This document shows positions 3,788-61,109 of a DNA stretch of 64,000 nucleotides, in pieces (position 1 is the first letter of the stretch; every line of letters begins with the position of its first letter). The position numbers and the translations under genes are program-made. Source of the DNA: Eledone cirrhosa (Eukaryota); contig OZ024742.1 in NCBI GenBank assembly GCA_964016885.1, forward strand, positions 258,354,001 to 258,418,000, given 5' to 3'. Below the pieces are notes generated by a model. That model had not been told where the DNA came from, did not search any database, and worked only from the letters and a program-made list of their open reading frames with translations.

Positions 3788-3795
3788 GTGCAAAA

Positions 3796-26490: not shown

Positions 26491-29335
26491 TTTTTATGGA
26501 ATAAGATTAAGGAAATCTTCATTGACGACAGACGGCTGATCACCCTCAAACAAGAATTGAGAGCTGTTAGCGAAAAACGCCAAATACCTGAAGAAGGTAG
26601 ATGAGAGAAAAATGTTTAATAAAAGATTCAAACGAAACCAAACATCAGTCTATAGAGATATGAAGGGCAAAATAATAAGTGTCACTGAGGCCCCATCCCA
26701 GAAAGACATAGATTCCTTTTCGAGAAAAATATAGGGTGAAAAGAAGAATTTCAACCAAGATGCAGTGTGGCTAAGAGAAATCCGAAAGAACTATTGCTCC
26801 TACACTACAACAAAAACATACGAAATAAGTGAGGGTACCCTTGAGACTGTGATAGGAAAACTCCAAGATAAGAAAACACCAGGATGAGACATGATTGTCG
26901 GCTACTGGTACAAAAAACTAATATTCTATCGGAGGTATCTTACTGACCTCTACCTACAAGTTCTTAAGGGAGATACACTAATACCAGAATGGTTGACATT
27001 AGCATAAACGTTACTGGTCCCCAAGAACAAAGACACCTACTTGGCAAAAAACTACCGACCCATTGCATTGCAAAACCTGATGTATAAGATGTATACAGCC
27101 TGCCTTAACCTATTCCTCCAAGATCACTGTGAAAATAATAACATCATCACAGATGAACAAGAAGCTGGAAAGAAAAGGGTTTGGGGATGTGCTGAACAAC
27201 TCCTAATCAACAAAACTGCGATGTCGGAGGTGCGACAACTTAGGAGGAATATGACTACAGTCTGGCTGGACTACAATAAAGCTTTCGATTCTGTTCCCCA
27301 CTCTTGGATGATAGAGGCTTTCAAACTTGCTAAAGTCCCAGACATTATTGTCAGAGCCATAGAGAGGCTGTCTTCTTCTTGGGCTACTATCCTAAGGTTA
27401 AAGACAGAGAGCGAGGACTCTATTTTCACTGATAAAATAAAATATTGCAGGGGTATATTTCAGGGGGACAGTCTCTCTGTGATATCGTTCATCTTGTCAT
27501 TAAACCAGTTGTCCTTTCTGCTCAAGAAATGTGAGGGATACATCATTGGCTCACAGGAGGACAGAAATACGAACCTAACCCATAACTTCTTTGTGGATGA
27601 TCTGAAACTCTATGCCAAGAACATGGATGTGATGAAGAAAAATGTTGACCTGGTTACAACGTTCTCAAAGGATATAGGAATGGAGTTTGGCCAAGATAAA
27701 TGCTCATACATGACTGTAAAGCGGGGAAAAACAACAACCCAATCTAGCAACATTGTCATCAATGGTCTAACTGTTTCACCGATATCTGATGAGGACTGCT
27801 ACAGATACCTGGGGATAGATGAGAACATATCCTATAATGGTATCTGTAATAAAGAACGCGAAACCAGGGAATACTACACCCGATTAAGAAAGATCTGGTC
27901 ATCGGAACTCTCTGCGCAAAACAAAACAGTGGCTCACAATGTGTTTGCTGTGCCTCTCCTAACACCAACGTTTGGAATACTCAATTGGACGATAGACGAA
28001 ATCCGAGCAGTTGATGTTGGAACTCGAAAAATACTGAACACCGGAAACTTTCACATCAACAGTGACATAGACCGCCTTTACTTGAAACGTAAGCAGGGAG
28101 GCAGAGGCCTAACATCAGTCCAGACAACATTTGAATGTCGCAGCATATCTCTCCGACAACATCTACGAACCTCGAAGCGTAGGAGCCCGTTTCTCGAGCA
28201 AGTCTATCTGCATGAAACAGATAAAATCATGAGAGTTGGGAAGGAACTCTTTGAGATATATTCCCTGTGTGATAATCAAAAACTCACACCCAGGGATGTC
28301 GCCCAGCAGTATCGCAGTGAATCTATGGATGAAAAACTCCATGCTTAGCAGCAAAAGATCATGCATGGATATGTTGCCAGGAAGCTCCAGAGTGAGAGTA
28401 ATATAGATAAGGAAAGTAGTCTATCTTTTGCAATCCAGGAACAGGAGATTAGCACGAAATACCTGATTCACAAAAGAGATAGGGATGCAGGCAAAACACC
28501 TAGATGTGATAACAAGTGCAGACTCTGCAGAACTAATATCGAGGATATCATCCATGTCATCAGCAGCTGCCCAAAGATGTCATCGCTGTACTATCTACCT
28601 ATGAGGCATGATGTAGTGGCCAAAACACTGTACAATGCAGTTCGTAAAAAAGATAACCCCGATAATAAACACATTAAAAGCTACAGCAATGTGGAAGACA
28701 TCCGTGTACATAATATGAAAGAGTACTGGTGGAATGTTCCAGTAAAAACCCCAATAAAATGCAGGCATAACAGACCAGATATTATGATATGGGAGAGGGA
28801 GAAGAAAACATGCACAGTATTGGAAATTAGCTGCCCAGCAGATGCCAATATAATATCAAAGATTAGCGAAAAGGAGAATATTTATGCAGAACTGATGACA
28901 AATCTGCAGATACTCCACCCTGATTACACCTTCAGATTTATGCCTGTGTTTATTGGGACACTGGGGTATGTTAGTAACTGCCTCAATACAAATCTTGAGA
29001 AGCTAGGCTTCACTGGAACAGAAAGAACACAACTAGTTAGGAAATGACAAGTACAATCCATTAATGGAACAGTAAAAATATGTAAAACATTCCAAAAATG
29101 TTGCATCTAATAACTGCATATACACATGTACAGATATAAAGCATATACACATGCACACATACAACTCAAAACATACATATCCACACATACAATAACATCC
29201 ATATCTACACATGCATGCATACATATCTACCTAGTTGATGTTGTGTAAATTCCAATGAGAGAGTCTTGTGTCTATGTTAGAAACCGACTCTCTCTCTATT
29301 GGTAAAACTTTGTGAAATTATAAAACCAGAAGAAC
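26491..29335 (+). mobile_element. R4/Dong-like REL non-LTR element, 5'-truncated, (CATA)n tail
   Basis: NYRPI, LDYNKAFDS, QGDSLS, FVDDLKL, CRLC..HVISSC, RHD, RPDI, EISCP; ends at (CATA)n ~29336-29413. Confidence 0.92.
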
Positions 29336-31193: not shown

Positions 31194-31195
31194 TA

Positions 31196-31771
31196 TTATT
31201 AGAAATGTAAGCTATCGCCGTATTTTGACTAAAGAAATTAAAGAAATTATTTAGCCTGATAGTGGGGTTAAGAACTCTCCGAGAAATGGAAAAAGATGAG
31301 TATTGACGTACATGGGAGTCGAACCCACATCTTTGGTTATCCGGACCACTGTGCTACCATTTACATCAACACATCACACGTCTTTGTCCATTCAAATTAG
31401 AAGCTATAAACTTAGCGACTGTAATGTCAAGTAAGAATATTTTCGAAACAGCGAGTTGGTTTAAATTATTAGAAATGTAAGCTATCGCCGTATTTTGACT
31501 AAAGAAGTTATTCTTACTAGACATTACAGTCGCTAAGTTTATAGCTTCTAATTTGAATGGAAAAAGACGGGTGATGTGTTGGTGTAATTGATAGTACAGT
31601 GGTCCGGATAACCAAAGATGTGGGTTCGACTCCCAAGTACGTCAAGACTCATCTTTTTCCATTTCTCCGAGGGTTCTTAACCCCAATTTCTTTAATTTCT
31701 TTAGTCAAAATACGGCGATAGCTTACATTTCTAATAATTTCAAACCAACTCGCTGTTTCGAAAATATTCTT

Positions 31772-32551: not shown

Positions 32552-34114
32552 CTGTGTGTGTGTATATAATCATGTGTTGTACAGAATTTGAATTAGCGTG
32601 TAATGTATATGTGTATACTTTTATTATCAGCATATATAAATAGAATGTTTTTTTGTTTTTATTTTAGTATACGTCTAAGCCCTGAATAAATTAAAAATGT
32701 TGATGTGTATGTGCATACCCTATTTACAAAAATCTGCTTCTCTGATGATATCTGCAGCTCTGTGAGCGGTAATATTTTATTCTGATTCCATTCCATGTAT
32801 ATAATTTGCTCCTGTGTCAAGTTAAATTGGAAATGGAACTTTGATGGACTCGTTTAAGATGTGGGATAGTGTGCAGGGTCGTATTTGTTTGTTTCAAATC
32901 TCTGCTCCCTAATTTTAAACCAAGCCGAGGTCGATTTTACTTTTGTACTTTCGAAATCGTTGAAACAGTAGCAGAACAGCACTGGTTTCGTTTCTTCTTC
33001 TATATCTCTTTCTTACCTTCAATCCATATCTGTTTCTATCCTGCTCTCTCCATCTTTCTCCAATTCTGGTAGAAATCAGCAGTTTTCAAACCTGGAAAAT
33101 AATGGATTCCAGCAGTATTAAAATTTCCTAGACACGCCTTATGCACACTATGGGAAAAGGCAGTTTCAAAAATACAGTTTCTTGATGAATGACACAACGT
33201 ACCGACAGCTATTGAATACACGATTGTGGGCCAAAACCCTTCACCAATAAGCCAAGCACTTTCACAATAGTTAAGGACAAAGAAGCTTACATGAAAGCAT
33301 TTATCTATAGGTCTACTATGCATAGGCTGGGTTTGTGCGAAAAAATATTGTCTAAAGTAATTTGTATTTATTAGGTAAATAAGGGAAACTTTTGATCGAA
33401 TTTAGATTTGTGATTTAAATATTGAATATGGAAGAATTTCAGTAGATATATCATTTCAGATTTTCTACGTTACATGAAAGCATGATTGCAACTAATTTTA
33501 CGTGAGTACCAAATGTTGATATACACGTATATTTGTATATTTAAACTCATGTGAATTGAAAACGGTGTGTTTTGCCGCCAATAGTCTATATTCCTACGCG
33601 CGAATACTGATGTCAATGGATATACATCTCATATGACTGTTGGTCACAGAACAATAAATACATATGACTTGCCTGAATTATATACGCATAACAGTGAACA
33701 ATAAAATGGTTTTTATCCCTGTATTTCTGTATTTCTGTATTTCTAAAGATAACCTACGAAATATATGGAATTTGAATTCAAATAGACAAGAGTATCGATT
33801 CTTCAGGTATGGTATCTTTATTACTAGAAATAAAATTTATGTTATTAAGATCTCCCTTTGCCAAAACCTAACGTTTCTAGAGGTGTCAAACAATAAATTA
33901 CTTCATTGCATTACTGTTACTTATTTTTCTCTGGCTGTCAAATACAAAATAAAATGAACAACAAATCCCTTTCTCAGAAGGAATATATTTTTCCACAGCT
34001 ATTGAATGATGATAGGTTGTAGGGTGAGCATAAAAAGGAATGCCATAACATAATAGCGAGATACACGCAGGAAGAAATATAATATATATCGCCACACCTC
34101 TAATACATTAATAA

Positions 34115-34625
34115 ATAACCATAATACATGTAAAGCCCACTATACTATATGTATAAACAATTATGATACATGTATAAAAAGCTATATTACATGTACAAAC
34201 AACTATGATACATCTATAGAAAATTATGACACGTACAAACTACAACATACGTATGAACTATAATACATGTAGAAAGAACCATACTACATGTGTATACAAC
34301 TATGTTACATGTATAAACAATTATGCTACAAGTATACACCACATGTACAAACAGCTATAATATATGATTTAAAAAAATCAAGTATGTGTTAAAATCATAA
34401 TACATGTATAGACAACTATACTACACGTATAAACAAATATAAGATATGTATAAACAATAATACTAGTCGATACAACTATACTACACGTATAAACACTTGC
34501 GATACATGTAGAACCTGCTATTAGACATGTAGAAACTATAAGGTTTATATTAACAATTATAATACATGTGCAAACAATTATACTGCATATATAAACAACT
34601 TTACTTCATGTACAATCATGATACA
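34115..34625. repeat. Degenerate ~21-bp minisatellite (aactataatacatgtataaac)
   Basis: More than 20 diverged units with TACATGTA core; related tracts at ~55990-56105 and ~56355-56425. Confidence 0.8.
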
Positions 34626-35080: not shown

Positions 35081-35213
35081 TCAGCATCTTGCGATCATCT
35101 AATTGCAGCCTCCATTGACGATTCATTTGCTTTTCTTCTTTTCCCGCTCTCAGCTTTCACCGTTTTGCGAAAAATGGTCGATCCATTCCAAGGAGGCATT
35201 ATCTAAGGAAAGA

Positions 35214-35400
35214 GGTGGATTGGCAGTATCGGTAGAGAGTCGGACGCTATGCTTTCCAGCATAGTTACGTCCCTTTACGATCTGAGTTCAAATCCCGCCG
35301 AGGTTCACTTTGCCTTTCATCCTTACGGGGTCGATAAAATAAAGTACCAGTAATGCACTGGATAATTGCTGGCCTTGTGCCAAAAGTAGAAACAATTATC
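35214..35400 (+). mobile_element. tRNA-derived Meta-type SINE with 18-bp TSD
   Basis: TSD ATTATCTAAGGAAAGAGG at 35198-35215 and 35395-35412. Confidence 0.9.
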
Positions 35401-35476
35401 TAAGGAAAGAGGACGTAACAGTCTAAGATATATATATATATATATAGTAATAATATTAATAATAATAATAATAATA

Positions 35477-35822
35477 ATGGATGTGGCCTGCCCATTCGAC
35501 ACGAGAGTGCAAGAGAAGGAGAGGGAGAAAATTAACCGATACCAGGACTTAAAGTGGGAGGTAAAAGGGATTTGGTACTGCCATGAAGTCAAAGTGGTCC
35601 CGATTGTCATAGGCGCACTAGGTACTATCTCAAAGAGTTTCCATGGATGGTTAAAGAAAATTGGCCCCGCCCCGCTTTTTGGAACACTTCAAAAGGCATG
35701 CTTACTGGGAACAGCAAGAACTCTCCGATACGTCCTGAATATCTGAGGCTGCAGGTATTGGTATGATATTCATTTAAACAAACTTTCCAGTTAACCAACA
35801 TCAATGACTGAGACTCAAAGAA
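35477..35822 (+). mobile_element. R4/Dong-like 3' fragment (family 2) between (AAT)n tracts
   Basis: DVACPFD..EKINRYQDL..PIVIGALG..LQKACLLGTA; closely matches ~52010-52340. Confidence 0.9.
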
Positions 35823-35831
35823 CAATAATAA

Positions 35832-35861
<30 letters not shown>

Positions 35862-35862
<1 letters not shown>

Positions 35863-38800
35863 GATTTCTTTATTGGCCACAAGGGCTGACATCAAGAAAA
35901 ACATCACAGACGGCACAGGACGGTACGATGTGGGTTTTGTGTTGACAGCAGATGGATCGTCTGACCATGGGAGCGCGTCCCTTCCACAAAAAGCGGAAGA
36001 GGAGGCGTTCCATTTTGATGAGAGTTGGGTTGGAGCAAGGGACGGCGGTGAGGCGGTAGCAGATGACGGATGCAATGTACGCATTCGCCACTTCCGCTCG
36101 GCCTTTCAGGGAAAGCTTCCTCTCAGCCCATTTCTGGGTGAGGGAGGCGACCCTGCTCGTCACCTCGTTCCAGTTTTTCTCCATCTGGAGGTCCGGTCCG
36201 AACCAGACCCCGAGCAATATAACCGGTCCGTCCTTCCAACGCCCCACGACGCTGTCGGACGGCATGGACTTGCCTCTCCAGGTGCCTAGCTGCAAGCCCA
36301 CTGACTTATCCTGGTTTATATTTGCTCCTGTCAACGCTTCGTATTCCTTCGTATTCCTTGCCGAGCATCTGGACGTGTCTGGTGCCCTCCCACCAGACCC
36401 TTGACGACAAGCGCCAACCTCGTTGCTAACACCTTGGCCAAAATCTTGAACTCTGCGTTTAGTAGAGTTATGGGCCTGAAATTATCGATAACATCCCACT
36501 TGTTCGGGTCTTTTCTCAGCAGCGCCACTGCTCCCCGGCTCACAAAACTGGGAATGCTCCCGTTCTGCTGCCAGTTGCAGTAGTCGTCTGCCAAAAGGTC
36601 ACCGAACAAGTATAGCATAAATGCATAAAGCTCGTGGGGCAAACCATCTAAACCTGGCGATTTACCTCTTGTGCAGTTAGCCATCACTTCCCATATTTCA
36701 CCGGCTGTTATTGGCTTTTCGCAACACTGTGCTGCGGTCGTCGACAGCCGAGGCAGTCTGTCGAAGTATGCACTGAAGTCCATGCCCCGAAACGTGCCTC
36801 CCCCGCTCCCGAACAGTTCAGCAAAGTGCTGCTGAAAAGCTTCACACATCCTCTCGGGTTCGAGCATCACGCACCCGTTTTGGTCAGACAAAGACAGAAT
36901 TGTGGCTTTGTTGCCACGTCGCGCCTCTGCAACCCGGGTCCATTGGACGGCTTTTGTCCCCTCGTGTTTCAGAGCACGCGCCCTAGCTCTGACAACGCAG
37001 CCTTCGTGTTTTGCGTTGAAGAATTGGTCGAGTGCCTCTATCACTACTCCTTTGCTAAACCTAATCGACTCTACTTTAATTGCCCTTTTCAGGGCGAACC
37101 CCCACCTGTTGTTGACGACCGCTCCCGTCAACGCCCGCTTAACTAATACGCTAATCCGGTCTCTGTAGACTTTGCGCGCCAGGAAAGACGCTATCAGCTT
37201 CCAGTAACCGTGTCCTTGTCTATGAAGTCTGTCTATGTAGATCTCACAGATCACAAATTTGTGGTCTGTGTAGTCAACTATTTTAAATTGTGGACAACTT
37301 ATACTAGCCTTATCTAGTTCTCTGCAGAATACCCTATCGAGATACGATCTGGATGACCCGATGCGGTTTGTCCATGTCCACATTGGCACATTCGTGTGAT
37401 CCAGTCGATACCTTTCAGACAGTTCAAAACGTCTGAGCAGGTTGGTGAGGCTCTTGCACCCTCCTCCTCTATCCACTAGCCCCACACAATCCCAGCGTGC
37501 ATCCAAGATACCGTTCCAGTCGCCCACTAACACTAAAGAGCGGGACGTTCCAAGAAAGGTCTCTAGACGTCTGAAGAAATCTGGCCGTCCTGCCCCTTTG
37601 GGGCGTAGACGGCTACTAGCCTGAAAGCATTGCCTTCGCTGCCGGTCACGTCCAGCACCACCGACTTAACTTCTGTGTCTAGGAAAATGGCCCGTATTGC
37701 GAGATCCAAGCCTCTCCGAGATGCGTATACATCATGGCCGCCGAAGATCGGTGCGAAGGCTTGTGCTTCGGAGATTCTGATTTCACTGTTGGCCACCACA
37801 TCTATGTTTAGTGACCTGAGGTCGTTGAGAAGGTGACCCTTCTTCCAAGATGACCCCAAGTCACGTGCATTTATACTGCCTATTCTAAGTTCGGCCATGT
37901 TGGACGAGAAACGGAGCAAGTGAGAAAGGGTCACTTACCTTGATCGTGTGGTGAAGGGACAGTAGAACCGTCCCTATTGCTGGTCATGGGTGTTTCCAAG
38001 AGGATGTAAGTGTATATCCTTTTGGTAACCGACCCTCTGAAGTCTCCAACTGCGTTGGGGAATTTTTGTTTTAAAGATTTGTACTGTTCTATTGAGATTT
38101 TGATGATGCTTATGTTTGTCGGGAGAGTTCTTGGTGTTGGTGTAGTGTAGTAGTTTTTGTCTGTGATGTCTGTGTGCTGCTTTATATATTGTACGAGTTC
38201 TTTTTTGCCATGTTTATGGGGGAGGGGTAATTTTGTTGCTTTCTTCTTGTTGCTGTTTGGTTTGTGTGTATTGTTGTGTTTGCGTTGTTGGTGTCTTTGG
38301 TGATGCTGGTGGTGGTGTGGTTGTTGTTGTCAGTGGTGCTTGTGGTGGTGATGGTGATGGTGTTGCTGCAAATTTCCTTGCTGCCTTTACCCCTCTTTGT
38401 ATGCCTTCGCTTTTGGAGGGTGAATCTAAGGGTTTTTTTATTTTTTATATTTTTGTGGCAGACCGTTTGCCACTTCACCCCTGCCTCAAACTCTATGTCG
38501 GATTCTGTGGCGTCTGGGCGGGGTATGTGCTCCACGGCTGTTGGTGGTGGTAGTGGAGCTCTCTTCGTCAATTGTGTTGCTAGTGTAGCTACTTCAAATG
38601 TAGCTATTGGTTTTGCCGCCACTGATGATGCTACTTTAGTTGTCCGTGGCCTTGGTACGGGTGCTACGGACGTTGCCCTCCTACTCAACGTGGAAGGGGC
38701 TTCTGTGTTTGTTGCTTGCCCTGCTCTTGCTAGCAACGGACCAGGTATTGGAAGGAGAGGGGCCTTCTTATTCGCTGTCTTCTGCGGGCAAAAGGCCCTA

Positions 38801-40219
38801 AGGTGACCCTTCGACCCACAGAGATAACATTTTGGCCGTCTTCCTTCTACACTTATAGGGAGTTGGAGTCCTTTCTCGATGTCTATGATATCGGGGATAG
38901 CGTCGATACATTCCTGGTCAGTTTGTATAAGCATTTGCATGCCTTTACCTGACCAGTTCTCTCTCCCTATTTTTTCTACTTGCAGCATGGTCGTCATGTT
39001 ATCGATTCCAGCAAGGACAGACGCGGCCAGCCAAGGTATGGGCACGTCGGGTGGGACCTGGGTCACTTTGACCATCACAATTTTCTGCCCGCAGTAGGAG
39101 GGCACCAACACTATCTTCTTACTCTTTAGGGTTTCCAAAAAGTGAGTCTTTGCTTCCTGGGGCTGGCGAAAAGTACGTCTACTGTGGCGTACTTTCTGCC
39201 TCGGGTGATGTGGGTTTTGCGTACCTAGATGCACCCCAAGGCCTTTTAGATTTGCGCCTCCGTGGGTCTCTTCACCCGATGTGAGATTTTGCTTACGGTG
39301 CGGTAAGTCACCGTCCGTAGCTGCTGGTCCTTGAAAAAATCGGGTGGAGGTTCCAGGGAGACTCTATTGGTGCTTCCTGTGACCATGGCCCTTGCGACTG
39401 CCATCTCCTCTGTGACTAACACTGTCTCGATATTTCGGGCGACACATGCAAAAGAAGTTGTCCCTTTTTCAGCAACACCACTATTGCTGCCGCTACTGGT
39501 CTTACTGGTGGGGCTGAGATCGCTATTACAGGTATCCGTGTCATTGTTGATGTTTTCGTTGGAACAGTTGTTGGTGTTGTTGTTGTTGTTTTCGTTGATA
39601 CTGTTGCTGTTGTTACTGTTATTGTCGCTGTTGTTATTATTGATGTTTTTGTTGATACTGTACCTACTATTATTGTTGTTGTGACTGTTGTTATTGTCAC
39701 TGTTATTGTCGTTCTCGACCTTACCGCTCTTATTTTTGTTATTGTCGTTCTCGACTTTACCGCTGTTATTTCTGTTGTTGCTGTTGTTATTGATGGTGTT
39801 GTTGTTGGTGTTGTTGTTGGTGTTATTGTTGGTGTTGTTTGTGTTTGAAATATTTGTTAATTTTAAATCTGTAACAAACTTCTTTTCCTTTGTAATATTT
39901 TCGTTTATATTTACCTCCGCTGGAACGCTGTCTTGTTGACATGCTGATAAAGTCTCCATCTCTCTGTGTTGTCTAACAGCGCTCTCTCTGTTTCTTGTGT
40001 TATCCATGTTGAAATTTTTCCAAAAAGATATTTTTACACAAATACCCCGTAAAGGGGTGCCGTATTATTTACGAGTGAACCCCTGTATTAGGGGGAGGGT
40101 CACTTCTTGAAAACTTTTATCAAATTTTAAAACTTGAATAAAAGGTTTAAAACGGTTGAAAACGAGGTAAAACGTTGAAAAAAAACTGGACTGGAGCCGA
40201 TAAGAAGCGTGGCTTCACC
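35862..40219 (-). mobile_element. Tx1/L1-clade LINE copy B, both ends present, RT core and ORF2 3' part deleted
   Basis: Asn-rich ORF1 with CYLCGSKGHLRAFC; APE LRIGSINAR, GDWN; deletions near 36385 and 35935; (AAT)n at both ends. Confidence 0.93.
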
Positions 40220-40253
<34 letters not shown>

Positions 40254-40255
<2 letters not shown>

Positions 40256-40490
40256 CGCAAATCTCAGGAAACCCGCGTATAGGAGAAATACAAAAGATAG
40301 TACTAATGGAAACTGCCCATATACTAACGAAGATTCTGTCAATATAAGTACATCACAAGTCTAAACACTAAAGATGCATGTGTGAATATGTATGTTCTTT
40401 CTTGAACATGGCGGACCTTGTTGTCTCTTGAGGTCACTGGTTGTGACTTGGTGATAACTCGTAGAACATAAAGCAAGATAAATGCAACTG
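40254..40490 (+). mobile_element. 5'-truncated copy of the Dong-like element at 47581-51511
   Basis: Near-identical to ~51280-51512; (AAT)n on both sides. Confidence 0.92.
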
Positions 40491-40507
40491 TAATAATAAT
40501 AATAATA

Positions 40508-43500
40508 ATGATTTCTTTATTAACCACAAGGGTTTACATAAAGTAGACATTAAGGAGAGTGCAGGACAAGACAGGACGGTACAAATGGGCATTTCTGCGT
40601 GTAAAAAACAAAAACAGAGGATCTAGCAAAAAATAACAAAGAAAAATTCCCCAATAGGGGGGAGGCTTCCGAGGGACATTTGTGGAGAAAGCCCAGTAAA
40701 AGGCCACAATGACCCTGGCCACCAAGGCAAGTGCCCTCTCCCAGTTTTCCACCTTTAATTTACAGATATATACTCAGAGTACGCCCATTCACTCGGGCCA
40801 TTCTTGCTTCTCTCACCCATCTTTCAACAAAATGCTGGGAAGAGAGCACTTCCCTCTCTACTCTGATTTTCATTTTCAAATGAAATTTGAAAAAGTCAAT
40901 CAGGGCATCACCGAAGAGGTAAGTGCTCGTCTTCGGCCCTTTCAAACGTGTCCACCATACTATCTCTTTCGCCATGGCCACCAGACAGATAAAAACTGCC
41001 TGTTTTTCCCGGCTAAAGGAGGAGGGCGGGGTAAGCCTCACGATGGACTCAGATGATAGCTGGATCCGTCCTAAACGCGACAGCACGTGTTCCACATAAA
41101 CCCACAAGTCAGCAATTTTCAGACACTGGACGAGTGCGTGCAGGACGGTTCGTCGCCCTGCGCGCATCTCGGATATGCCCGGCTGACGGCCCCTCCATGC
41201 CTGTAGAGTTTATCCCGAACTGGTAAGGCTCCTCGGTAGCACTGCCAGGCCAGAGATTTCTGGAAGTTGTCCATAGGCCCTGGCCCGGAAGTTCTGCCGA
41301 AGAGATTGGCTAGTTGATTTTCGTCGACGCCTAGAGTTTCCCCAAGTACGTCGTCACTCTTCCCCTCCACTAATCCTCTATAGAACGCCGAGGTGGAGTT
41401 TCCACCGATCACATTGCCCGATTGGTCGAGGGCTGTGAGCGCCTGAAGACATTCCAGTCTCCAGGCGCTCCCTCTCGGTCTTCGCTTGACCCAGGACTGC
41501 AGCTCCGTCAAGGAAACGAGCTGGAGAAATACGTGTCTAGCAAACGGCGACCACACCTGATCACCGTCGAGGAAGAGGTGGAGATATCGTAGCCTGAGCG
41601 CGTGCCTGCGCATCATCAGCCACGGCATGCCCAGCCCTCCACGTAGCGGGTGTTGACAGCAGGTGGACCGCCTGACCATCGGAGCGCGTGCTTTCCTCAA
41701 AAAGCGAAAGAGCAAACGCTCCAGCGCAGTCAGGCGAGGCTTAGGACAAGGTACGACGGTCAGGCGGTAGCAGATGACAGAGGCGATGTACCCGTTAGCC
41801 ACCTCCGCTCGACCTTTCAGGGATAGCTTCCTCTCGGCCCATTTCTGGGTGAGAGAAGCCACCCTGCTCGTCACCTCGTCCCAGTTTTTCTCCGTCTGGA
41901 GGTCCGGACGGAACCAGACCCCTAGCAATTTAACTGGTCCGTCCGTCCAGCGTCCGACGACGCTGTTGGACGGCATGGACCTGCCTCTCCAGGTGCCGAG
42001 CTGCAGGCCCACTGACTTTTCCCGGTTGATCATTGCTCCTGTCACCGCTTCGTATTCTCTTAGTGTAGTGCCGATCGCCTCGATGTGTTTGGCGTTCGAC
42101 ACCACTACGGTGACATCGTCCGCATATGCTGACACGGATCTTCCGCATCCTAGTTCGCGTGGGACGCCCCTCACCGTCTCCAGTTTATGCAGTAATGGCT
42201 CGAGAGTCAATACGTACAAGAGGGACGAGAGGGGACATCCTTGGCGGACCGAGCGCATGATGTTGAACGGTTCCGACAGGTGACCGTTCACTCTCACCAC
42301 AGAGCAGATGTCGCTGTGCATGGGAGCGATCCAGCCTCTAAAGACGGGCCCAAAGCCAGCCGCACTCAGGACTGCCGCTAGGTAACGATGGTCGACCCTA
42401 TCGAAAGCTTTCGACTGATCTATATTGATCAAGGACCCACCCGTGACAGGTTCCCTAGCTACCCTCTCTTCGATGTATCGCATGAGGTGGAGGTTGTCGT
42501 GGATGGATCTGTCGGGAATGGCGCATGTCTGCGCCTCTCCCACCAGACCACCAACGACAAGCGCCAACCTCTTTGCTAGCACCTTGGCCAAAATCTTGAA
42601 CTCTGTGTTTAGCAGAGTTATGGGCCGGAAATTATCTATGTTATCCCCCTTGTTCGGATCCTTTCTCAGCAGTGCCACCGCTCCTCGGCTCACAGACTGG
42701 GAATTCTCCCGTTCTGTTGCCAGTTGAAGTAGACGGCCGCCAAGAGCCTTCGAACAAGTCTGGCATCTGTACGTGAAGTTCATAGGGCAGACCATCCAAA
42801 CCAGGCGATTTACCCCTTGTGCAGCCAGTCATTGCCTCCCTTACTTCAGCGGCTGTTATCGGCTTTTCGCAACACTTCGCCCCAGTGGCCGAGAGCCGCG
42901 GCAGTCCGTCGAGGTAGACACTAAAGTCCATCCCTCGACCCGGCCCACCGCTGCCCCCGAACAGCTGAGCGAAGTGTCGCTGAAAAGCTTCACACATTTG
43001 CCCGGGATCGAGTAGCATGCGCCCGTCGTGTTCCACTAAAGACCGGATCGTGGCTTTGTGGCCACGACGTGCCTCCGCAACTCGGGCCCATTGAACGGCT
43101 TTCGTCCCCTCGTGTCTGAGAGCACGCACCCTTCTTCTGACAACGCAGCCTTCGTGCTTTGCATTGAAGAATTGGTCAAGTGCCAATTTCGCCGCAAGCA
43201 CGTCGGTCGCAATGCCTTTGCTAAGCGCCTCGTCTAATGTTCTAACTAGTTCTCCCTCTGCTCTATTTTTCTCTATTGCTAAAGCCTTACTAAACCTAAT
43301 GGATTCTATTCTAATCGCTCTTTTCAGAGCAAACCACCACTTGTTGTTGACGATGGGCCCCCGTCAACGCCCTCTTAACTAGTTCGCTAATCCGGTCTGT
43401 GTAGGCCTTGCGCGCTGGTAAGGACGCGTTTAGCTTCCAGTAGCCGGGTCCTCGTCTATGAAGCCTATCTAAGTCAAGCACACAGATCACGAATTTGTGG

Positions 43501-45835
43501 TCCGTGTAGCTGACTATCTTGAATTGTGGACAGCCTATGCTAGACCTATCTATTTCCCTACAACATACTCTATCTAGATATGATCTGGATGACCCTATGC
43601 GATTTGTTCAAGTCCACATTGGCACATTCGGGAAATCCAATCGGTACCTGTCAGACAGTTCAAAACGCCTGAGCAGGTTGGTGAGGCTCTTGCACCCTCC
43701 AGCCCTATCCGCTAATCCCACACAGTCCCAGCGTGCATCTAAGATCCCGTTCCAGTCGCCCACTAACACTAAAGAGCGGGACGTTCCAAGAAAGGTCTCC
43801 AGACGCCGGAAGAAATCAGGCCGTCCTGCTTGTGTCGGGGCATAGACGGCCACTAGCCTGAAAGCTTGCCCGTCTCCGCTGGTCACGTCCAGCACCACCA
43901 GCTTACCCTCTGGGTCCAGGAAGATGGCTCGTATGGCGAGATCCAAACCTCTCCGAAAAAGCACAGCAACTCCTCCCCCCGATCCAGGACGGCTGAGAGA
44001 TGCGTACACATCGTACCCGCCGAAGATCGGTGCGAAGGCCCGTGCTTCGGCGATTCTGGTATCTCTGATGGCCACTACATCTATGTTTAGTGACCTGAGG
44101 TCGTTGAGCAGGTGACCCTGCTTCCATGACGACCCCAAGCCACGTGCATTTATGCTGCCTATTCTGAGTGGGGTCATGTTTAAAATAGAGTGGAAAAGAT
44201 GGGAAAGACCACTTACCGTACTTTTCGTAGAGGAGGGATGGTTTTTACATCCCTTTTCACTTGATCGTCTGGTGAAGGGACCGTTGAATCGTCCCTTCGG
44301 CTGGTCGTCGGCTCTTCTATGAGTATGTCCGAATATACTCTTCGATTGATAGTTCCTCCTAGGTCCCTGAAATCACCAACTGCGTTGGGGAATTTCGTTT
44401 TAATGTTTGTGTATTGTTTCTGTGCTATTTTTAGCAGTCTTATGTTAGTTGGCGTTTTGATTGGTGCTGGTATTATGTAGTCGTGTTGTGAAATGTCTGT
44501 GTGTTCAATTATGTAAGTCATTAGTTTCTTGTTGTGTGTATTTATTGCCGTGCATTTGTTTTTCTGGGGGTGGGGTGTGGTTCTGCTATTTTCTTGTCGT
44601 TGCTGGATGTGTGTGTTTTGTTGTTGTGTTTGCGATGTTGGTGCTTGTGGTGGTGGTGTTGAAGGTGTTGTTGGCGGTGGGGTTGTCGCCGGTGGGGATG
44701 GTGGTGCTAGTGTGGGTGGTGATGGTGTTGGTGGTGTTGCTGCTGTGAGTCTCTTTGCAGTAGCCTTTACCCTTTTTTCATTTCTTTCCTCCCTTTTCGA
44801 AGGCGATGATGCGCTGCTTCTGCGTTTGTGTCTTTTTACGACCTTTTGCCATCCCTCTCCCACCGTACACTCCATGTCTGATTCTGTGAGGTCGGGGAGG
44901 GTTACCAGCTCCACTCTTTCACTTGTTGTTGTTGGTGATGTTTGCAGTGGAGTCTCTGTTGCAGCTGCATTTGCTATTGCTGTTGTTGTTGTTAATACTT
45001 CCACTGCTGCTGCTGTTCTTGATTTCCGTGGCGTGGGTATGGGTGCCACGAACCTATCGTTCCTGGTTGCCGCTTGTCCCGTTGCTGGTAGCCGTGGAGC
45101 CGGTTTCGGAAGGAAGGGGGCTTTCTCCGTTCTCAGGGTCTTCTCGTTGCAGAATGCCCTGAGGTGAGTCTTCGATCCACAGCGAAAGCATTTCGGGCGT
45201 TTTCCCTCAAAACTTATGGGCAGTTGAGTGCCGTTATCGAAGTCTATCACATCCGGAATAGCTTCGATGCACTCCTGGTTGGTTTGGATTAACATCTGAA
45301 TGGAGGTGCCGACCCAATCTTCTCTTACTTTTTTCTGTACTTGCAGTACAGTTGTTTTTTCCTCGATTCCGACGAGAACAGACGCGGCCAGCCAAGAAAG
45401 GGCCATCCCGGGGGGACGTGGGTCAGTTTGACCCTCACCATGTTTTGCCCGCAGTAGGAGGGCACCAACACCATTTCCTCGCTCCTTAGGGTCACTAAGG
45501 ATTGAGCCTTCGCTTCCTGGGGTGTGGCAAAAAGCACGTCTACGGTGGCATATTTCTTGCCTCGGGTGATGTCCGTTTTCCGCTACCACACAGACCCTAA
45601 GGCTTTTTGTATTTGAGCCTCTGTGGCTCTTTCAACCCTGCGGGATTTTGTGCTTACTGTACGGTACGTGACCGTACAGAGCTGTTGGGTTTCGAAAAAT
45701 GTTCGGGTGCCTTGCAGATTGCTCGGTGTCCAGTTTTCGTTACCATCTTCTTCGCTTCCTCTAATTCCTCATTTGTTATGAGGATGGTTTCCAGGTTCTT
45801 TGCGATACCTGCAAACGAGACTGGTTTTTCTTTGC

Positions 45836-45872
<37 letters not shown>

Positions 45873-46586
45873 ATTGTTGTTGTTGTTGTTGTCGTCAGAG
45901 CTGTTGTTGTTGTTGCTGCAGGTACTACGACTACTGCCGCCGCCGCTGTTGCTGTGGTTGTTGTTGTTGTTGCTGTTACTGCTGTTGTTGTTACTTTTGC
46001 TGCTAATGCTGTTGTTGTTTATGCTGCTGCTGATGATGTCGCGGCTGCTACTGTTGTTTTCCTTGTCACTGTTGCTGCTGCTGCTGTTATTACGGCTGCT
46101 ACTGCTATTATTCCTGACGTCAGACGAATGAAATGGGTTTTCGTATTTCCGCACACCTTTTTCGTCGTTGTCGTCGTCGTTGTGGAGAAATCTTGCACGC
46201 TTTGCACGTGATTTTTCTTTTCTGGCGTCGCTTGCGAAAGAGAAGGGCGGAAGAGAGACACATTTAGAGAAGGGAGGGAGAGAGACAATCTTATCTCTGC
46301 TGTAGTGACGATTGAGGAAGAAGAAGACGGAATGAGTGGGAGTGACCTATGAAAATTCTTTTTCGTAGCCATGTTTTTTTTTGTTTAAAATAAATATTGG
46401 GCACAAAACCCCAATAACCAGTTATTTAACCCCGAAGGGCCAAATAACGGGCGGAAAGACCCCTCTCAAGAGGAGGAGGGTGTTTTTGTCTACAATTTGC
46501 TTAAAGTTTTAAACAATTTACAATTGTTATAGCGGTCAAAATTTACAATACCTTACAGTGCCGAGCCTCCGTCAACCATAGCATTC
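40508..46586 (-). mobile_element. Full-length Tx1/L1-clade LINE copy C (ORF1 ~46372-44213; ORF2 44177-40760; several frameshifts)
   Basis: ORF1 CFRCGSKTHLRAFC; ORF2 MTPLRIGSINARGL, GDWN, DQSKAFD, QGCPLS, AYADDV; (AAT)n at 40491-40509 and 46587-46633. Confidence 0.96.
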
Positions 46587-46633
<47 letters not shown>

Positions 46634-47580
46634 GGGAAGAAGACGCACAAGGTTGTAGATGGTCATGAAATCGCTCCCGTAAGTTTTTGAATTTTAACAT
46701 ATTTAAATCAATTGTGAAATAACAATTCTTAGTACAAATGGTGCATAAACCACCGAATGAGGTCCCATAAAGTTTCGGATCCATATTATATTGTTGTATC
46801 GCTCAAATAATCAATTTTGTATTATATATTTTGTATTCAAAAAAAGAAAATGGTTATAAATGGAAGAAAACACCCTCTGTCTACACTATATAGAACAGCC
46901 AAATAACAGCAATTTCACCAACACCAGAAACTTGATACACCACCTATCCCATCACACTAAATATAACAGCCAGATAACGGCAATTTCACCACCACCACCA
47001 TCAATCCCAGCATCATAATAATAATTACTATTATTATTGTCTCAAATATTAAGAAAATGTTTAATTCCAATTTTACGGGAATATGTCAACACAATATATA
47101 TTAAACATACGAACACAAACTCATAGATACTACATTTCAGTAACCACAACGCGACCGCTGCCACCACCCCACCCCATCCATCATTGCCGCCGCCACCACT
47201 CCTTTATTGCTACCACCACTATTCCCCTTTTAACTTGAGAGAGAAAGGGGAAGGTGGCGGTATCACTAGACAAGGGAGAGGCTAGCAAAAGATATAAATA
47301 GATTGACTTAGTGACCTGGCCACCGGCCAAACGTCAACATCAACAACTATGGGACTGCTGGCTCACCCCTTCCTCACCAACAATATAAAAAGCCCCGGCT
47401 CCACCAATAACAGGCAACTACTGCAAAAAGTATATTATATTATTGTAATGCACTGGGTGATTGCTGGCCTTGTGCCTGGAGTGGAGACTATTATTAATAA
47501 TTTCATTCTTAAGCCACGCAATGCTCACATTAAGGAACCACTCATGATAATAACAATTTAAAAAAACAACAAAAATAAAA

Positions 47581-50500
47581 CCCCGTGACCAAGAAATACC
47601 GGGATGGCGGCCGGCGGGGAATAGCTGTGTCTCTAGGGGAGAACGACCCCTCTAGTCTTGGTTGACACTCGTTCTAGAAGTGGTAACACGAAATGATTAC
47701 CCCTTGGCGGATAAGGATAAAACGCGACAAAATAAAGTAAATGTCTAATGATAAAATCTCATACCGGATCGGCCGTCAGCCGGGTAAAAAAGGGCCGCGT
47801 GCCTCAGAGAGGAACCGGACTGGGGGCGAAAAATCAGCTAATGGTTCAAACCTTCCCATCACTTCGGAGCCGGAGACCTCCCATAACCGGAATACTCCTA
47901 CTGTTGGCCCTCCATGCTCACCACCAAGAAATCCAAAGAAAAAGAGAGAAAAATGGTCAAGGGAAGATAATAAAGAAGTCCTTGAGGCTTTCTACACTGC
48001 CATGTACTACCCATCAAATACATCGAATACAGAACAGACATATATCAACTGGAAAAAGAAACATCCCGTAAACAGAGGCTATATTGACAGTAACAAACTA
48101 GCCAATATACGAAGAAATATTGTAAGAAAAAAGTTACTAACTGATATAGAAATTGATCAGATCAAGCTATTAGCACAAAGTCAGCGAAGGGAAAATGAAA
48201 CATGTGTCAGTGAAAACGAGGTAAACTGTAACACTTCGAATCCCAGGGTTGGGGCGGAATCACTGGCAACAGAACAAATTAAAGAAAGGATCGAAAAAGT
48301 GGAGGGAGTGCATGCAAATAAAAATAATGAGATCGTAAATGATAAAGAAATGAATGAGAATGAACTTGCCAACTTGAAGGATGAAATTATGATCGAATGG
48401 ATGAAAATGAAAGAATCTGACATGGGGCAACGAGACACCCTCCCTAAGTTCCAGAACTCCAAACAGAACCAAAATATAATACACAAGACTAACATAATTC
48501 TCAAAAACATTATCATCACAAACAAACTAAACATTACTGATTTAAATCATCTCTATTATGCATCGGCTAAAGTCACCACTCACTTATGTGGAGTGAAGAT
48601 GAAAAAACAAAGGAATTCCCACAAGAAATCTACTTGGCAAGAGAACATCAATCGCCAAATAAACCTTCTCAGATCTGACATAGAAATGTTCACAAACTAT
48701 AAATTAGGTGAACATCTGAAACAAACTAAACTTAGAAAATTGAAAAAAAAGTACAGTATAAAATCAACATGTGACATAGACATGCTGATAGAAATAATCA
48801 AGCAAAAAGTGTCGGCCAAAGCTGCTCGTATAAGGCGCTTTGAAAAACGATCTAGATTCTATAAGGACAATAATATGTTCAAAAACAACCAAAGAAACTT
48901 CTACAGAAAAATTGGTAAGTCAACAATAACTGCTAAATCAATACCACCCAAGGAGGAAGTGCAAGAATTCTGGGAAAAGATCTGGGCCGAAGAAAAAGTT
49001 CATAACATACATGCCCCATGGATAGACAGACACATGAAAGATACAGCTCACCTTGAGGAACAAATATGGGAATATATAACAGTTGAACAGTTGCGCTTGG
49101 CTCTAAGAAAAACCAGCAAATGGAAATCCCCAGGAAAAGACAAAATACAAAACTTTTGGATAAATGCCTTCACAGAGTCTCATGAGCTGTTAGCCCAACT
49201 TTACAATGAAATAGTTAAGGAGCCAGAAAAGATACCATCATGGCTAGTTAACGGCATTACATTCATGCTACCGAAGAATGATGAGACAAACAATCCCAAA
49301 AATTACAGACCGATAACCTGCTTGACAACAATGTATAAAATTTTAACATCAGTCCTAACTGAATACACATATGACCACCTGATAAAAAATGACCTGTTTC
49401 CCATTGAGCAGAAAGGGTGTAAACGAGGCTCATATGGCTGTAAGGATCAGCTTCTGGTTAACAAAATGATACTGGATGATTGTCATAATAGACACAAAAA
49501 TCTATTGATTGCTTGGATAGATTATAAAAAAGCATTCGATAGTTTGCCATACAGTTGGATTAAAAAATGTTTAGAGATTTTCAAAATATCCCCCGTTGTC
49601 AGGAGGTTTTTGTCATTCAGTATGAAGACATGGAGAACGACACTCCTTTTGAATAGTGAAACAAAATCACTGGAAGCTGGAGAAGATAATATTAATTGTG
49701 GAATTTTCAGGGTGACTCTTTATCACCGCTTTTATTCTGCATCGCACTTATACCATTAAGTAAAATGCTCAATGAAACAAAACATGGATATAGAGTCTAT
49801 GACAAAACCATTAATCACCTGTTCTACATGGATGACCTGAAACTATTTGCAAAAAATGATGAACAATTGCAAGGGCTATTATCCACTGTGAAGCAGTTCA
49901 GTGATGACATTAAAATGGAGTTTGGACTGGATAAATGCGCCAAAGCAACGTTCACCAGAGGAAAGCTGGTGAAGAGTTCAGACATTAATCTTGATCGGGG
50001 GAACGTGATAAGAGAGCTTGATCAAGAAAAAACTTACAACTATCTAGGTGTTTGTGAAGGAGACGGAATCAAGCACTCGACAATGAGGGAAAGGATAAGG
50101 AAGGAATGTTACCGCAGAGTCAGAGCAATCTTAAGAACGGAATTGAATGCAAGGAATAGGATCGATGCCATAAACACGCTTGCCATACCAGTAGTAACCT
50201 ACAGTTACAATGTCATCAAATGGTCAAGCACAGAGATCCGTAGGCTCGATACAGAAATCCGAAAATTCTTAACCATGCACAGAATGCATCACCCTAAGGC
50301 AGATATAGATAGAATATATCTCCCTAGGAAAGAAGGAGGACGTGGGTTAATCCAGTTAGACATTGCGTTGAAAACTGCAACAATTGGATTATCCACATAT
50401 CTAAGGGAATCACATGATTGGATGATCAAACTCGTTTTGAAACACGAAAGCATCAAAAGATCATATTCCATTACAAAAGATGCACAAAGATACAGTAATG

Positions 50501-51511
50501 GACTACAAATTTCAGAAGTCCCATTTACTGCTGAAATGGAAAACACAGAAAAAGCAAAGCAGGTAAAAGTAACTGCAAAGAAACTGCTAGAGAAACTGGC
50601 TAAGAAATGGCAAGAAAAGCCTCTGTATGGAAAATACCCAGAATGAGCTAACAATCCTGATGTTGACAAAACTTTAACCCATCAGTGGTTGGCATCCTCT
50701 GGACTGAAATCGGAGACTGAAGGACTGATTATATCGGCACAAGATCAGTGTCTGCCAACAAAAAATTACCAAGCCAACATAATAAAAAATGGGTGCAGCC
50801 CATTATGCCGTGTATGCAAAAAACAACCAGAGACCATTGACCATATAATTTCAATGTGCAGTCCTATAGCTCCAACCGAATACCTAAACAGGCATGACAG
50901 AGCTGCACAATACATACATTGGATAATGTGTAAGCATTTTGACCCGCCCCATCAAAAGAATTGGTGGGAGCATCAACCACCTCCCATACTTGAAAAAGAT
51001 CACATCTCAATCTTGTGGAACTTTAGCATCCAAACAGACCGAAAAATAGATGCAAATAGACCTAATATAATAGTGAAGGACTTTCAAAGGAGGGTATGCC
51101 TGCTAATTGATATGTCTGTTCCAATAGACAAGAATGTATCTATAAAAACATTTGAAAAATTGAGCAAGTTTAAGGACCTGGAGATAGAAATTGGAAAAAT
51201 GTGGAAATTGAGAACTAAAACAATACCAGTGGTTGTAGGCGCTCTGGGAATGATACCTAAGGGGTCTAACGACTACTTATCGCAAATCCCAGGAAACCCG
51301 CGTATAGGAGAAATACAAAAGATAGTACTAATGGGAACTGCCCATATACTAAGGAAGATCCTGTCAATATAAGTACATCACAAGTCTAAACACTAAGGAT
51401 GCATGTGTGAATATGTATGTTCTTTCTTGAACATGGCGGACCTTGTTGTCTCTTGAGGTCACTGGTTGTGACTTGGTGATAACTCGTATGAACATAAAGC
51501 AAGATAAATGC
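47581..51511 (+). mobile_element. Nearly intact R4/Dong-clade non-LTR retrotransposon
   Basis: Single long RT-ZnF-REL ORF, structured 5' UTR, (TAA)n tail at 51512. Confidence 0.95.
47741..51372 (+). pseudogene. Dong-like RT / CCHC finger / REL endonuclease ORF with one frameshift (~49708) and one in-frame TGA (50644)
   Basis: NYRPITCL, IDYKKAFDS, QGDSLSP, YMDDLKL, CRVC..HIISMC, RHD, RPNII, PVVVGALG. Confidence 0.93.
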
Positions 51512-51539
51512 AAATAATAATAATAATAATAGTAATAAT

Positions 51540-52340
51540 TGAGAAAACTGAATTCAGAGATCCACAGACATGGAACTGGGTAAAAAGAGTAGACCTTAAA
51601 AAGACTACAGAAGGAATGCTAATGACTGCGCAAGAGCAGGCCCTCAGAACGAAGTGGGTTAAACATCATATTTACAAGGAGGAGGCTAGTCCACTGTGTA
51701 GGATCTGTGGAGAGAGAGAGAGAGAGAGGAGACTGTGGCCCACATTGTATCCGAGTGTAAACACATAGCCCAGACTCACTATAAAGGCTGGGGTCATGAT
51801 GTGATGGGAAGCGTGAACCACTGGCACCTATGCAAAGTAAACAATTTACCGCATTCTGAGAAGTGATATGAGCATAAGCCAATGTCGGTGATAGAAAACG
51901 ATCAGGTGAAGGTGCTGTGGGATTTTAGGATACAGACGGACAAGAAACTGTAACACTATAGGCCTGATCTTGTAGTTTTGACCAAGGAAAAAAGATAATG
52001 CCTGATTGTAGATGTAGCCTGCCCATTTGACACGAGAGTGCAAGAAAAGGAGAGGGGGGAAAATTAACCGATACCAGGATTTAAAGTGGGAGGTAAAAAG
52101 GATTTGGAACTGCCATGAAGTCAGAGTCATAGGCGTACTAGGTACTATCTCAAAGAGTTTCCAAGCATGGTTAAAGAAAATTAGTCCAGCCCCGCTTTTA
52201 GAACACTTCAAAAGGCATGCTTGCTGGGAACCGCAAGAACCCTCCGATAAGTCCTGAATATCTGAGGCTGCAGGTAGCGGCATGATATTCCTTTCAACAA
52301 ACTTTCCAGTTAAATAACATCAATGACTGAGACTCAAAGT
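51540..52340 (+). mobile_element. R4/Dong-like 3' fragment (family 2), degenerate
   Basis: TEGMLMTAQEQAL, CRIC, LWDFRIQTD, RPDL, DVACP; (AAT)n on both sides. Confidence 0.88.
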
Positions 52341-52354
52341 ATAATAATAATAAT

Positions 52355-52537
52355 AATTGTTTCTACTTTTTGGCACAAGGCCAGCAGTTATCCATTCCTT
52401 TACGGGTACATTATTTTGTCGACCCCGTAAGGATGAATGGCAAAGTTAGCCTCGGCGAGATTCGAACTCGGAATTGCAAGGGCCGTAACTCTATCCGTGA
52501 AAGCATAGCCTCCGACGCTTTACCGATACTGCCAATC
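52355..52537 (-). mobile_element. tRNA-derived Meta-type SINE within (AAT)n
   Basis: Reverse complement of the 7813-8003 family. Confidence 0.8.
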
Positions 52538-52574
52538 AATAATAATAATAATAATAAAAATAATAATAATAATA

Positions 52575-53423
52575 AATTTGAAGAATAAAACCCATAGAGG
52601 GCTAAGAACCGTAGAGCAAATATTTATTAAAATAACAGATTAAATTTTAAGCAAAGAATCGCTGCTTTCACCCTTAACGAGATCTTCTGAAACTAAAAAA
52701 AATCAATTTGTGAACGCAGAAGTAAATATTTCTAAAAACGTTGCAACCGAAAAAAGACAGGAAGACGATACTTTGGTTCGTGGAGACGTTCCCTGGCAAT
52801 GAACGGGGGAAAAAAGCGAAGATAATACGTCATTATTTGTGCGTGGGAACAATTTTATGCAAAGACAAAACCACGTTTATGGTATAAACTAAAATTCTGT
52901 TTCGGAAAACGAATGATTGTCGGCTTCAGATTTAAGAATAATGTAAATGAATTACAGAGGTTATTGAAATTAACAATAATTAAATATATACATGCACGCA
53001 TCCATATACGTACATCGAAAACACCCGCCATAGATATGCATATACAAGCACGTACGCAAAAACACGCGCACACACCTAAAAACCCGCGCAACAACTTAAC
53101 TTGCTTGAATCTATTGGCGGTTTAACCCTATGTAGGCCCTACGGGACTATAGTGTTACAACCTTACATTTGTAGATAATGTTACTCGAGAGGCATTTCCC
53201 GGATAGGGGGCAGTCAACCCGATTCCTTCAATTGCAGTTAGCACTAGCTACAGGGTTGCACGTGTTCCTACGGCTAGGTAATTTAGCTAAATTTGAAGCT
53301 GTGATGGATAGGAGTCGTAGAGTTACTTCTGCGTTCACAGATTGATTTTTTTAGTTTCAGAAGAGCTTGTTAAGGGTGAAAGCAGCGATTCTTTGTTTAA
53401 ACTTTAATCTGATATTTTAATAA

Positions 53424-60384: not shown

Positions 60385-60568
60385 TAAGCAAAGAATCGCG
60401 TTAAGGGTGAAAGCGGCGATTCTTTGCTTAAACTTTAATCTGTTATTTTAATAAATATACGGTGTAGGGTTCTTATATATTTGATATATATTTATCCTTA
60501 TCGAACCCTCTTTGGATTTTAGTCTTCACATTTATTATTATTACTATATATATATATATATTTATATG

Positions 60569-60661
<93 letters not shown>

Positions 60662-60880
60662 ATAATAATAAATTTGAAGACTAAAATCCAAAGAGGGCTC
60701 GATAAGGATAAATATATATCAAATATATAAGAACCGTAGAGCAAATATTTATTAAAAAAACAGATTAAAGTTTAAGCAAAGAATCGCTGCTCTCACCCTT
60801 AACGGGAGTTTAAGAAGATCCCGTTAAGGGTGAAAGCAGTGATTATTTGCTTAAACTTTAATCTGTTATTTTAATAAATA
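60385..60880. mobile_element. Multiply inverted PLE terminal repeat around a (TA)n spacer
   Basis: ~60399-60550 and ~60655-60808 are inverted arms; hammerhead-like motif 60807-60857; same family as 52575-53425. Confidence 0.85.
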
Positions 60881-61109
60881 TATATATATATATATGACGG
60901 GGGAGTTGTGGTAAGGAACCAGATGGACCATAACGCACCAGAGTACTCAATACTTAGGGTAGTAGAGTGGGTAATAGGAGAAAGTATGACCACAACGGCA
61001 GAGCTCAAGCCGTTTCGAAACGGCTTTGAGCTCTGCCGTCGGGGTCATACGTTCTACTATATATATATATATATTAGAAAAGGGAATTTAGTTTCTATAC
61101 AAAACAGTG

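Follow-up and report, generated by a model that had tools for sequence, protein, structure and literature searches.

Here we analyzed a 64,000-nt stretch of the genome of the octopod Eledone cirrhosa (assembly GCA_964016885.1, contig OZ024742.1, positions 258,354,001 to 258,418,000; hereafter, the window), in which long interspersed elements (LINEs) are strung together by (AAT)n microsatellite arrays. We consider it highly probable that two of these LINEs, B and C, represent an abundant young lineage of the L1 group that resides in (ATT)n in a single orientation, likely through targeted nicking of the AAT strand, and that two Dong-like families likely nick the other strand of the same repeat, generating polarised chains in which both kinds of element are mixed. 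The evidence comes from the flanks and orientation of the copies across the genome, from incomplete copies that cannot have brought a 5' repeat with them, and from duplications of the insertion site.

B and C belong to an abundant L1-group lineage

Pfam searches with the pieces present in the window showed that the minus strand of both B and C encodes an apurinic/apyrimidinic-type (APE) endonuclease and a reverse transcriptase (RT). In C, the first open reading frame (ORF1) carries a CCHC-like knuckle, while ORF2 comprises the APE, RT and zf-RVT domains. The intact natural ORF2 of a sister copy (P0001) matched Exo_endo_phos (9e-14), RVT_1 (1e-28) and zf-RVT (6e-8), and contains what we take to be the APE catalytic residues. 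Its best relative among solved structures is human L1 ORF2p (2e-52, residues 5-850), R2 proteins reaching 1e-20 or weaker. Judged by its encoded proteins, the B/C lineage is an APE-type LINE of the L1 group, and it likely falls on the Tx1 side of that group. Members of the Tx1 clade have an ORF1 with a gag-like CCHC zinc knuckle. The CCHC spacing is visible in the ORF1 protein P0002, where Pfam gave no match, and the zf-CCHC match in B (E 0.007) is below the cut-off.

No named Tx1 sequence was found in homolog, cluster and Atlas look-ups with the lineage proteins, the only close named match being a protein of Argonauta hians (73% over the RT region). In an RT tree obtained by a quick method, subfamilies A, B, C and E, a sister family G and the Argonauta protein formed one octopod clade (15 rows; Shimodaira-Hasegawa-like approximate likelihood-ratio test, SH-aLRT, 99). 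Its surroundings are unnamed, fish, turtle and sea-cucumber RTs, with no labelled Tx1, Kibi or Koshi references among them; the Dong and RTE outgroups sit on long branches, and the row B_L214 is probably an E-type copy of that locus.

The lineage is abundant, as its 3'-end motif occurs in at least 16,614 copies in this 3.0-Gb genome and the 5' motif of C in 2,499. Contigs of four sequencing runs from four organisms, all of them DNA or unlabelled, match the 3' part of C, repeat flanks excluded; no RNA run was listed among those with the element. Among 67 sampled copies, 33 are full length, a large fraction by LINE standards, and internal deletions or a mosaic A/C structure are common.

The lineage is flanked by (AAT)n in a fixed orientation

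On the forward strand, (AAT)3 was present within 3-14 nt of the C 5' motif in 1177 of 1205 copies, and genome-wide the opposite repeat was next to none of the 2499 C 5' ends. Repeat-free queries scored by eye revealed AAT units after the 5' end in 30/30 copies of C and 30/30 of B; each set includes the window's own copy, and three of the B flanks are degenerate or short. Likewise, all 33 full-length copies abutted AAT in a position-ordered sample; of its first 100 motif matches, 33 of the sister type were set aside and the 67 ATT-type 3' ends were kept. At the opposite end of the element, (AAT)3 adjoins 7,451 lineage 3' ends, while 74 have just two AAT units after non-repeat DNA and 4 have one unit in a GC-rich context. 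(TTC)n was found beside the 3' end at two of 30 sampled loci, with one ATT at the junction in each.

We then compared the elements within 453 distinct arrays. Of 302 Tx1-type ends, 297 had the orientation seen in the window, as did 71 of 73 ends of a short interspersed element (SINE), whereas the ends of the Dong-like families D and R faced the opposite way in 195 of 200. As these arrays were picked via element ends, the counts show polarity and not the share of arrays that is occupied. Thus, neither the 5' flanks nor the orientation relative to the repeat is random, and the proposal of an initial sequence-only reading of the window, that Tx1-type and Dong-like elements use opposite strands of one repeat, is supported. 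At loci L202 and L204, sub-chains with opposing polarity adjoin or are nested, with an inverted block of Dong-like and Tx1-type DNA in or beside a Tx1-type copy.

Incomplete copies and duplications support (AAT)n as a target

Since a full-length RNA could carry the repeat, truncated copies are the test of targeting. An AAT hexamer, scored at -3 to +17 nt from the end of homology, was present in 14 of 34 incomplete copies, compared with 479 of 28888 background windows of 20 nt (1.7%; p about 1e-16), and the opposite repeat was present at the end of two of the 34. The second line of evidence comes from short sites, for which we used 40 of the 74 copies with a two-unit 3' junction (32 incomplete and 8 full-length). 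Twelve of the 32 incomplete copies carry a duplication that ends in TAAT at the truncation point and measures 15-27 nt (15-19 nt in ten of the twelve), compared with 3/990 mismatched control pairs; further cases were found at L226, L360 and L361. The far copy of each duplication itself holds AATAAT (one with a mismatch), so the site predates the insertion and no tail was added there. As the sequence-only reading had inferred, these results support (AAT)n as a target of the lineage and not just its tail.

Several observations weigh against this interpretation. AAT is missing from the end of 20 of the 34 incomplete copies; about six of them are from diverged subfamilies whose end could not be fixed, two lie within Dong-like DNA or are fused to it and two end in (AAG)n, and several young incomplete copies (L147, L174) also have no AAT at the end. 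Truncated Tx1-type copies retain the repeat less often than Dong-like ones (13/14). At the short sites, 20 of the 32 incomplete copies are without a duplication; of the 12 duplications, two represent one duplicated locus (L372/L373) and two adjoin SINE ends. Finally, a duplication of unique DNA was found in none of the eight full-length short-site copies, all of which have long 5' arrays, and L178, L335, L357 and L337 had none either. The 5' repeats of full-length copies may have been carried in part by the RNA, or the left flanks may have been altered later; several of the full-length short-site left flanks look changed by later insertions or deletions.

Recognition of the repeat and the sister family G

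Our model suggests that a first nick, made in the AAT strand where an AATAAT ends or just ahead of that point, would prime reverse transcription. The transcript would extend beyond the element by a few AUU units, and these would pair with the nicked strand. A second nick some 15-19 nt away would then duplicate the repeat on both sides. Consequently, a duplication of this length within an array would place repeat on both sides of the new copy, leaving two usable arrays per insertion. The two Dong-like families likely nick the other strand of the same repeat, and the SINE likely uses the same machinery as the LINE.

The 3' end of C has a small hairpin and no copied poly(A), and in each of the seven aligned LINE subfamilies an AATAAA precedes the repeat by six bases. 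The hairpin consists of 4 bp and a CUUGU loop; 32 of 36 cells are paired, with two-sided changes in three of the four pairs among only nine related rows, and the folding z-scores are weak (-0.25 to -1.9). Copies located beside (AAG)n or (AGT)n keep one AAT at the junction (L066, L071, L198).

Family G has 3,315 3' ends genome-wide. Scored by eye, its 3' junctions had (AAT)3 in none of 30 cases and two or more GATA units in about 18 of the 30, and on the 5' side about 11 of 16 copies showed GATA repeats or duplications ending in GATA. The G endonuclease is 60-62% identical to the ATT-type one and has a different hairpin loop, while the RTs are about 70-74% identical. In the quick RT tree, which has few rows here, G and the ATT-type family E are sisters, making an ATT-to-TATC switch the simpler reading; such a change of target on the way to G is weakly suggested by this placement. 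Among the G loci (L231-L260, L339-L354), a small number of copies lie in (AT)n or (AG)n, and head-to-tail stacks occur at L343, L352 and L354.

These features are relevant to an alternative in which the RNA sets the target. Here, a loose endonuclease would cut at numerous TpA steps, of which only those within (AAT)n would be used, the AUU tail being read through from the donor flank; the target would be inherited with that flank, and a stray insertion into GATA could found a GATA family. The absence of a copied poly(A) despite the AATAAA of the seven subfamilies, the single AAT kept even beside other repeats, and the entry of the SINE into short TAAT sites with a duplication of equal length all agree with this possibility. 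So does the endonuclease hairpin loop, which has a part in target selection by L1 and Tx1L; the loop of the lineage aligns to that of L1 without a gap and is thus of L1 length, whereas the loop of Tx1L is longer, with eleven residues, as described in PMC1950540. Pairing of a 3' repeat has also been proposed for RTE elements and SART1 (PMC6007223, PMC7265360). However, the divergent endonuclease of G, with its different loop, is what a protein-coded switch would give, the Tx1L endonuclease nicks its target specifically (PMC1950540), and an endonuclease swap shifts the target of SART1 (PMC7265360). We therefore regard targeting set by the RNA as possible but doubtful, although it and protein-coded targeting are not mutually exclusive.

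Dong-like families and a SINE occupy the same arrays

Family D has 4,797 3' ends genome-wide and family R approximately 10,133, giving about 14,900 Dong-like ends. Among solved structures, the D RT matches R2 proteins alone (best 1.5e-7), and the D reading frames have RVT_1 and no APE match in Pfam. The C-terminal motif of D and R is presumably a restriction-like endonuclease (RLE), for which no library model gave a match. All 30 sampled D 3' ends ran into (TAA)n, and truncated D copies had (AAT)n at their 5' end in 13 of the 14 cases within view, the other 16 of the 30 copies extending beyond the fetched locus. The fragments of these two families in the window had been taken as R4 and Dong, two unrelated LINEs. 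Their common orientation stands, but they represent two families of one kind, with 34 of 89 C-terminal residues identical (38%, E 3e-20).

The SINE shares with the LINE its 3' hairpin, its target, its orientation and its duplication length, features of a stringent SINE-LINE pair. Its 3' junction is AATAAT in 35 of 46 copies, and its duplications are mostly of 15-18 nt and end in TAAT. No array surrounds the window copy at 35217-35397, which is flanked by an 18-nt duplication whose end, on the minus strand of the element, reads TAAT. By its resemblance to the LINE, the SINE was likely moved by this LINE's machinery. It presumably has a tRNA-type head, as A- and B-box-like motifs were recognised by eye; ARAGORN found no tRNA gene in the 64-kb window.

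The chain in the window and how such chains grow

The chain comprises six LINE pieces and one SINE in about 17 kb (35448-52575), and its sole joints are (AAT)n arrays (Table 1). The sequence-only reading had described an R4 fragment (+), B (-), a Dong fragment (+) and C (-), split only by (AAT)n and with the repeat abutting both ends of B and of C; both the order and the junctions are confirmed by the coordinates and sequence of the window. It was also right about 35448..46633 as part of the chain, but not about its end, since D, R and the SINE continue it to 52575. The window copy of B measures 4357 nt, compared with at least 5630 nt in another B copy.

Table 1. Members and joints of the (AAT)n chain, and SINE copies, in the window
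Feature	Positions	Strand	Basis or remark
(AAT)n array, imperfect; left edge of chain	35448..35478		beside (AT)n run
3' fragment, RLE-type (Dong/R4-like) family R	35479..35823	+	95% to 3.4-kb R copy of locus L204
(AAT)13 array	35824..35862		tail-to-tail R/B junction
APE-type LINE B	35863..40219	-	both ends present, large internal deletions; Pfam Exo_endo_phos; blastn to other B copies
(AAT)12 array	40220..40255		between B and D fragment
3' fragment, RLE-type (Dong-like) family D	40256..40491	+	97% to 3' end of 46634-51512 copy
(AAT)6 array	40492..40509		tail-to-tail D/C junction
Full-length APE-type LINE C	40510..46586	-	frames broken; Pfam on window pieces and intact natural copy
(AAT)15 array	46587..46633		head-to-head C/D junction
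Full-length Dong-like family D element	46634..51512	+	ORF broken; RVT_1; same 5' end recurs after arrays elsewhere
(AAT)9 array	51513..51539		
Second 3' fragment of family R	51540..52342	+	89% to R reference
(AAT)5 array	52343..52357		
SINE	52358..52537	-	3' end like LINE B/C 3' end, oriented as B and C
(AAT)n array	52538..52575		right edge of chain
SINE copies of the window	3644-3990, 6354-6553, 7812-8013, 35200-35413, 52358-52537		

Tx1-type 3' ends are clustered, with 16 of 66 gaps not exceeding 7.5 kb, 15 of them between ends on the same strand, where about one was expected. The window chain mixes five families without a repeated unit, which points to successive insertion, and three sampled neighbour pairs combine a copy of subfamily A with one of subfamily C at 96-97%. 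The same-family neighbours differ from this pattern. Within their subfamilies, L199/L200 (99.65%, the top of 78 pairs) and L176/L177 (99.03%, the top of 153) are the closest pairs, and a triple C array at L228-L230 (C1, 57.08-57.11 Mb) consists of head-to-tail copies with the same interrupted spacer between them. That same-family neighbours are each other's closest copies, together with the shared spacer, points to tandem duplication, so that head-to-tail runs of one family would in part be later tandem duplications. Thus, the earlier suggestion that each insertion renews its target, giving self-extending arrays, fits the mixed chains and applies only in part to same-family neighbours.

One could extend this argument and propose that chains arise mainly from tandem duplication, or from recombination between (AAT)n arrays, instead of repeated insertion. 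The tandems just described and the frequent internal deletions would be in line with this idea. It is nevertheless improbable, because the five families of the window chain differ in divergence, the A-C neighbours belong to different subfamilies at 96-97%, and array recombination alone would not leave duplications of 15-19 nt.

Other features were observed beside these elements. A third copy of the lineage, from subfamily A (19441-24700, minus strand), is 90% identical to C over 3.8 kb; an imperfect (AAT)n adjoins its 3' end, and in place of its 5' end there is other LINE DNA, with a minus-strand RT (25858-26493) and a plus-strand RT (27008-29047). At L359 (C9, ~6.038 Mb), a 98-nt minisatellite of four units includes a 61-nt LINE 3' end and its flank. 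The window also has a minisatellite with a 21-nt unit (34098-34625, ~500 nt) and two imperfect inverted repeats (31195-31738 and 60396-60895, palindromes of ~550 and ~410 nt), which are likely of the miniature inverted-repeat transposable element (MITE) type.

Discussion

Targeted insertion of an L1-group lineage into (ATT)n, next to Dong-like elements that would use the other strand, is the interpretation that we favour. The reading in which (ATT)n is an element-made tail plus a 5' repeat within the full-length RNA, with loose insertion sites and with chains arising as Dong-like elements colonise the tails, could draw on the long 5' arrays and missing unique duplications (0/8) of full-length short-site copies, on the 20/34 incomplete copies without AAT at the homology end and on the stricter flanking of Dong-like copies, but it is very improbable and largely refuted, since truncated copies cannot carry a 5' repeat and yet end at AAT in 14/34 cases, the far duplication copies contain AATAAT with no extra units added, and Tx1-Tx1 neighbours of different subfamilies are common.

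A broader hypothesis, which we put forward tentatively and judge rather unlikely to hold in full, is that the target of this octopod lineage is partly inherited via RNA tail units. With the poly(A) signal near the element end, microsatellite units in the transcript would pick the nick, and the duplication would renew the site. Switches between ATT and TATC could then occur, and the lineage, the SINE and the two Dong families would form a strand-partitioned guild at thousands of loci. If this were true, the genome would provide a natural system for separating protein-coded from RNA-coded target choice in LINEs. It offers young related families with different targets, intact ORF2 copies, a SINE that reports duplications and an RLE family on the other strand, and this set makes domain-swap and tail-swap tests direct. 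In addition, the chains account for some of the clumped distribution of repeats in this 3-Gb genome, with its at least 16,614 Tx1-type and about 14,900 Dong-like 3' ends. SART1 and TRAS1, with which we compare the system below, are elements of the R1 clade.

The target choice of APE-type LINEs in microsatellites has been described as not well understood (PMC3812793). Kibi inserts into (TC)n, Koshi into (TTC)n and the crocodilian Tx1 families into (TTCC)n or (TTTC)n (PMC4494074, PMC3812793). Our lineage resembles these related families, which occupy different repeats, in being an APE-type LINE of the L1 group in a microsatellite. One published rule assigns a target preference when more than 20% of flanks are of one sequence type (PMC4494074), a share that was exceeded both by the C 5' ends (1177/1205) and by the incomplete copies (14/34). 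In contrast to Kibi and Koshi, the target here is (ATT)n, and (TATC)n in the sister family, and none of (TC)n, (TTC)n, (TTCC)n or (TTTC)n; the host is an octopod, and RLE-type elements share the repeat from its other strand.

The Dong elements of Bombyx mori (Dong), DongAg and the snail DongBg are (TAA)n-specific (PMC3812793). D and R share with them sense-strand (TAA)n at both ends, repeat-flanked truncated copies and an RT that, among solved structures, is nearest to R2 proteins, and are themselves new just in that two families coexist and share their arrays with an APE-type LINE and a SINE. In Octopus vulgaris, L1-Tx1 families are reported to be active, their targets being unmentioned in the main text of the reports (PMC8967140, PMC13282606), and Dong-R4 is reported to be active as well, in a main text without the word 'target' (PMC13282606).

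Two site-specific LINEs that share one repeat in opposite directions have a precedent in SART1Bm and TRAS1Bm, which enter (TTAGG)n; two to three units suffice, and RNA-DNA pairing has been proposed (PMC7265360). Those are both APE elements at telomeres, whereas here the endonuclease types are unrelated and the microsatellite is dispersed over the genome. Same-family tandems are likewise known from R1 in Drosophila, where a target duplication recreates the site, a second insertion produces a dimer and unequal exchange expands it (PMC5932611); the chains described here differ in mixing families and both orientations. Additional literature for comparison is found in PMC4640811 and PMC3747384.

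In the literature searched, with Repbase outside the search, we found no (ATT)n-specific Tx1 family and no sharing of a repeat by Tx1 and Dong, and an earlier description is possible. Relative to this literature, what is new is the (ATT)n target of an L1/Tx1-type LINE and its sharing with Dong-like elements. It is not a new class of mechanism, as microsatellite-specific Tx1 elements, Dong and the sharing of a repeat from opposite strands are each known.

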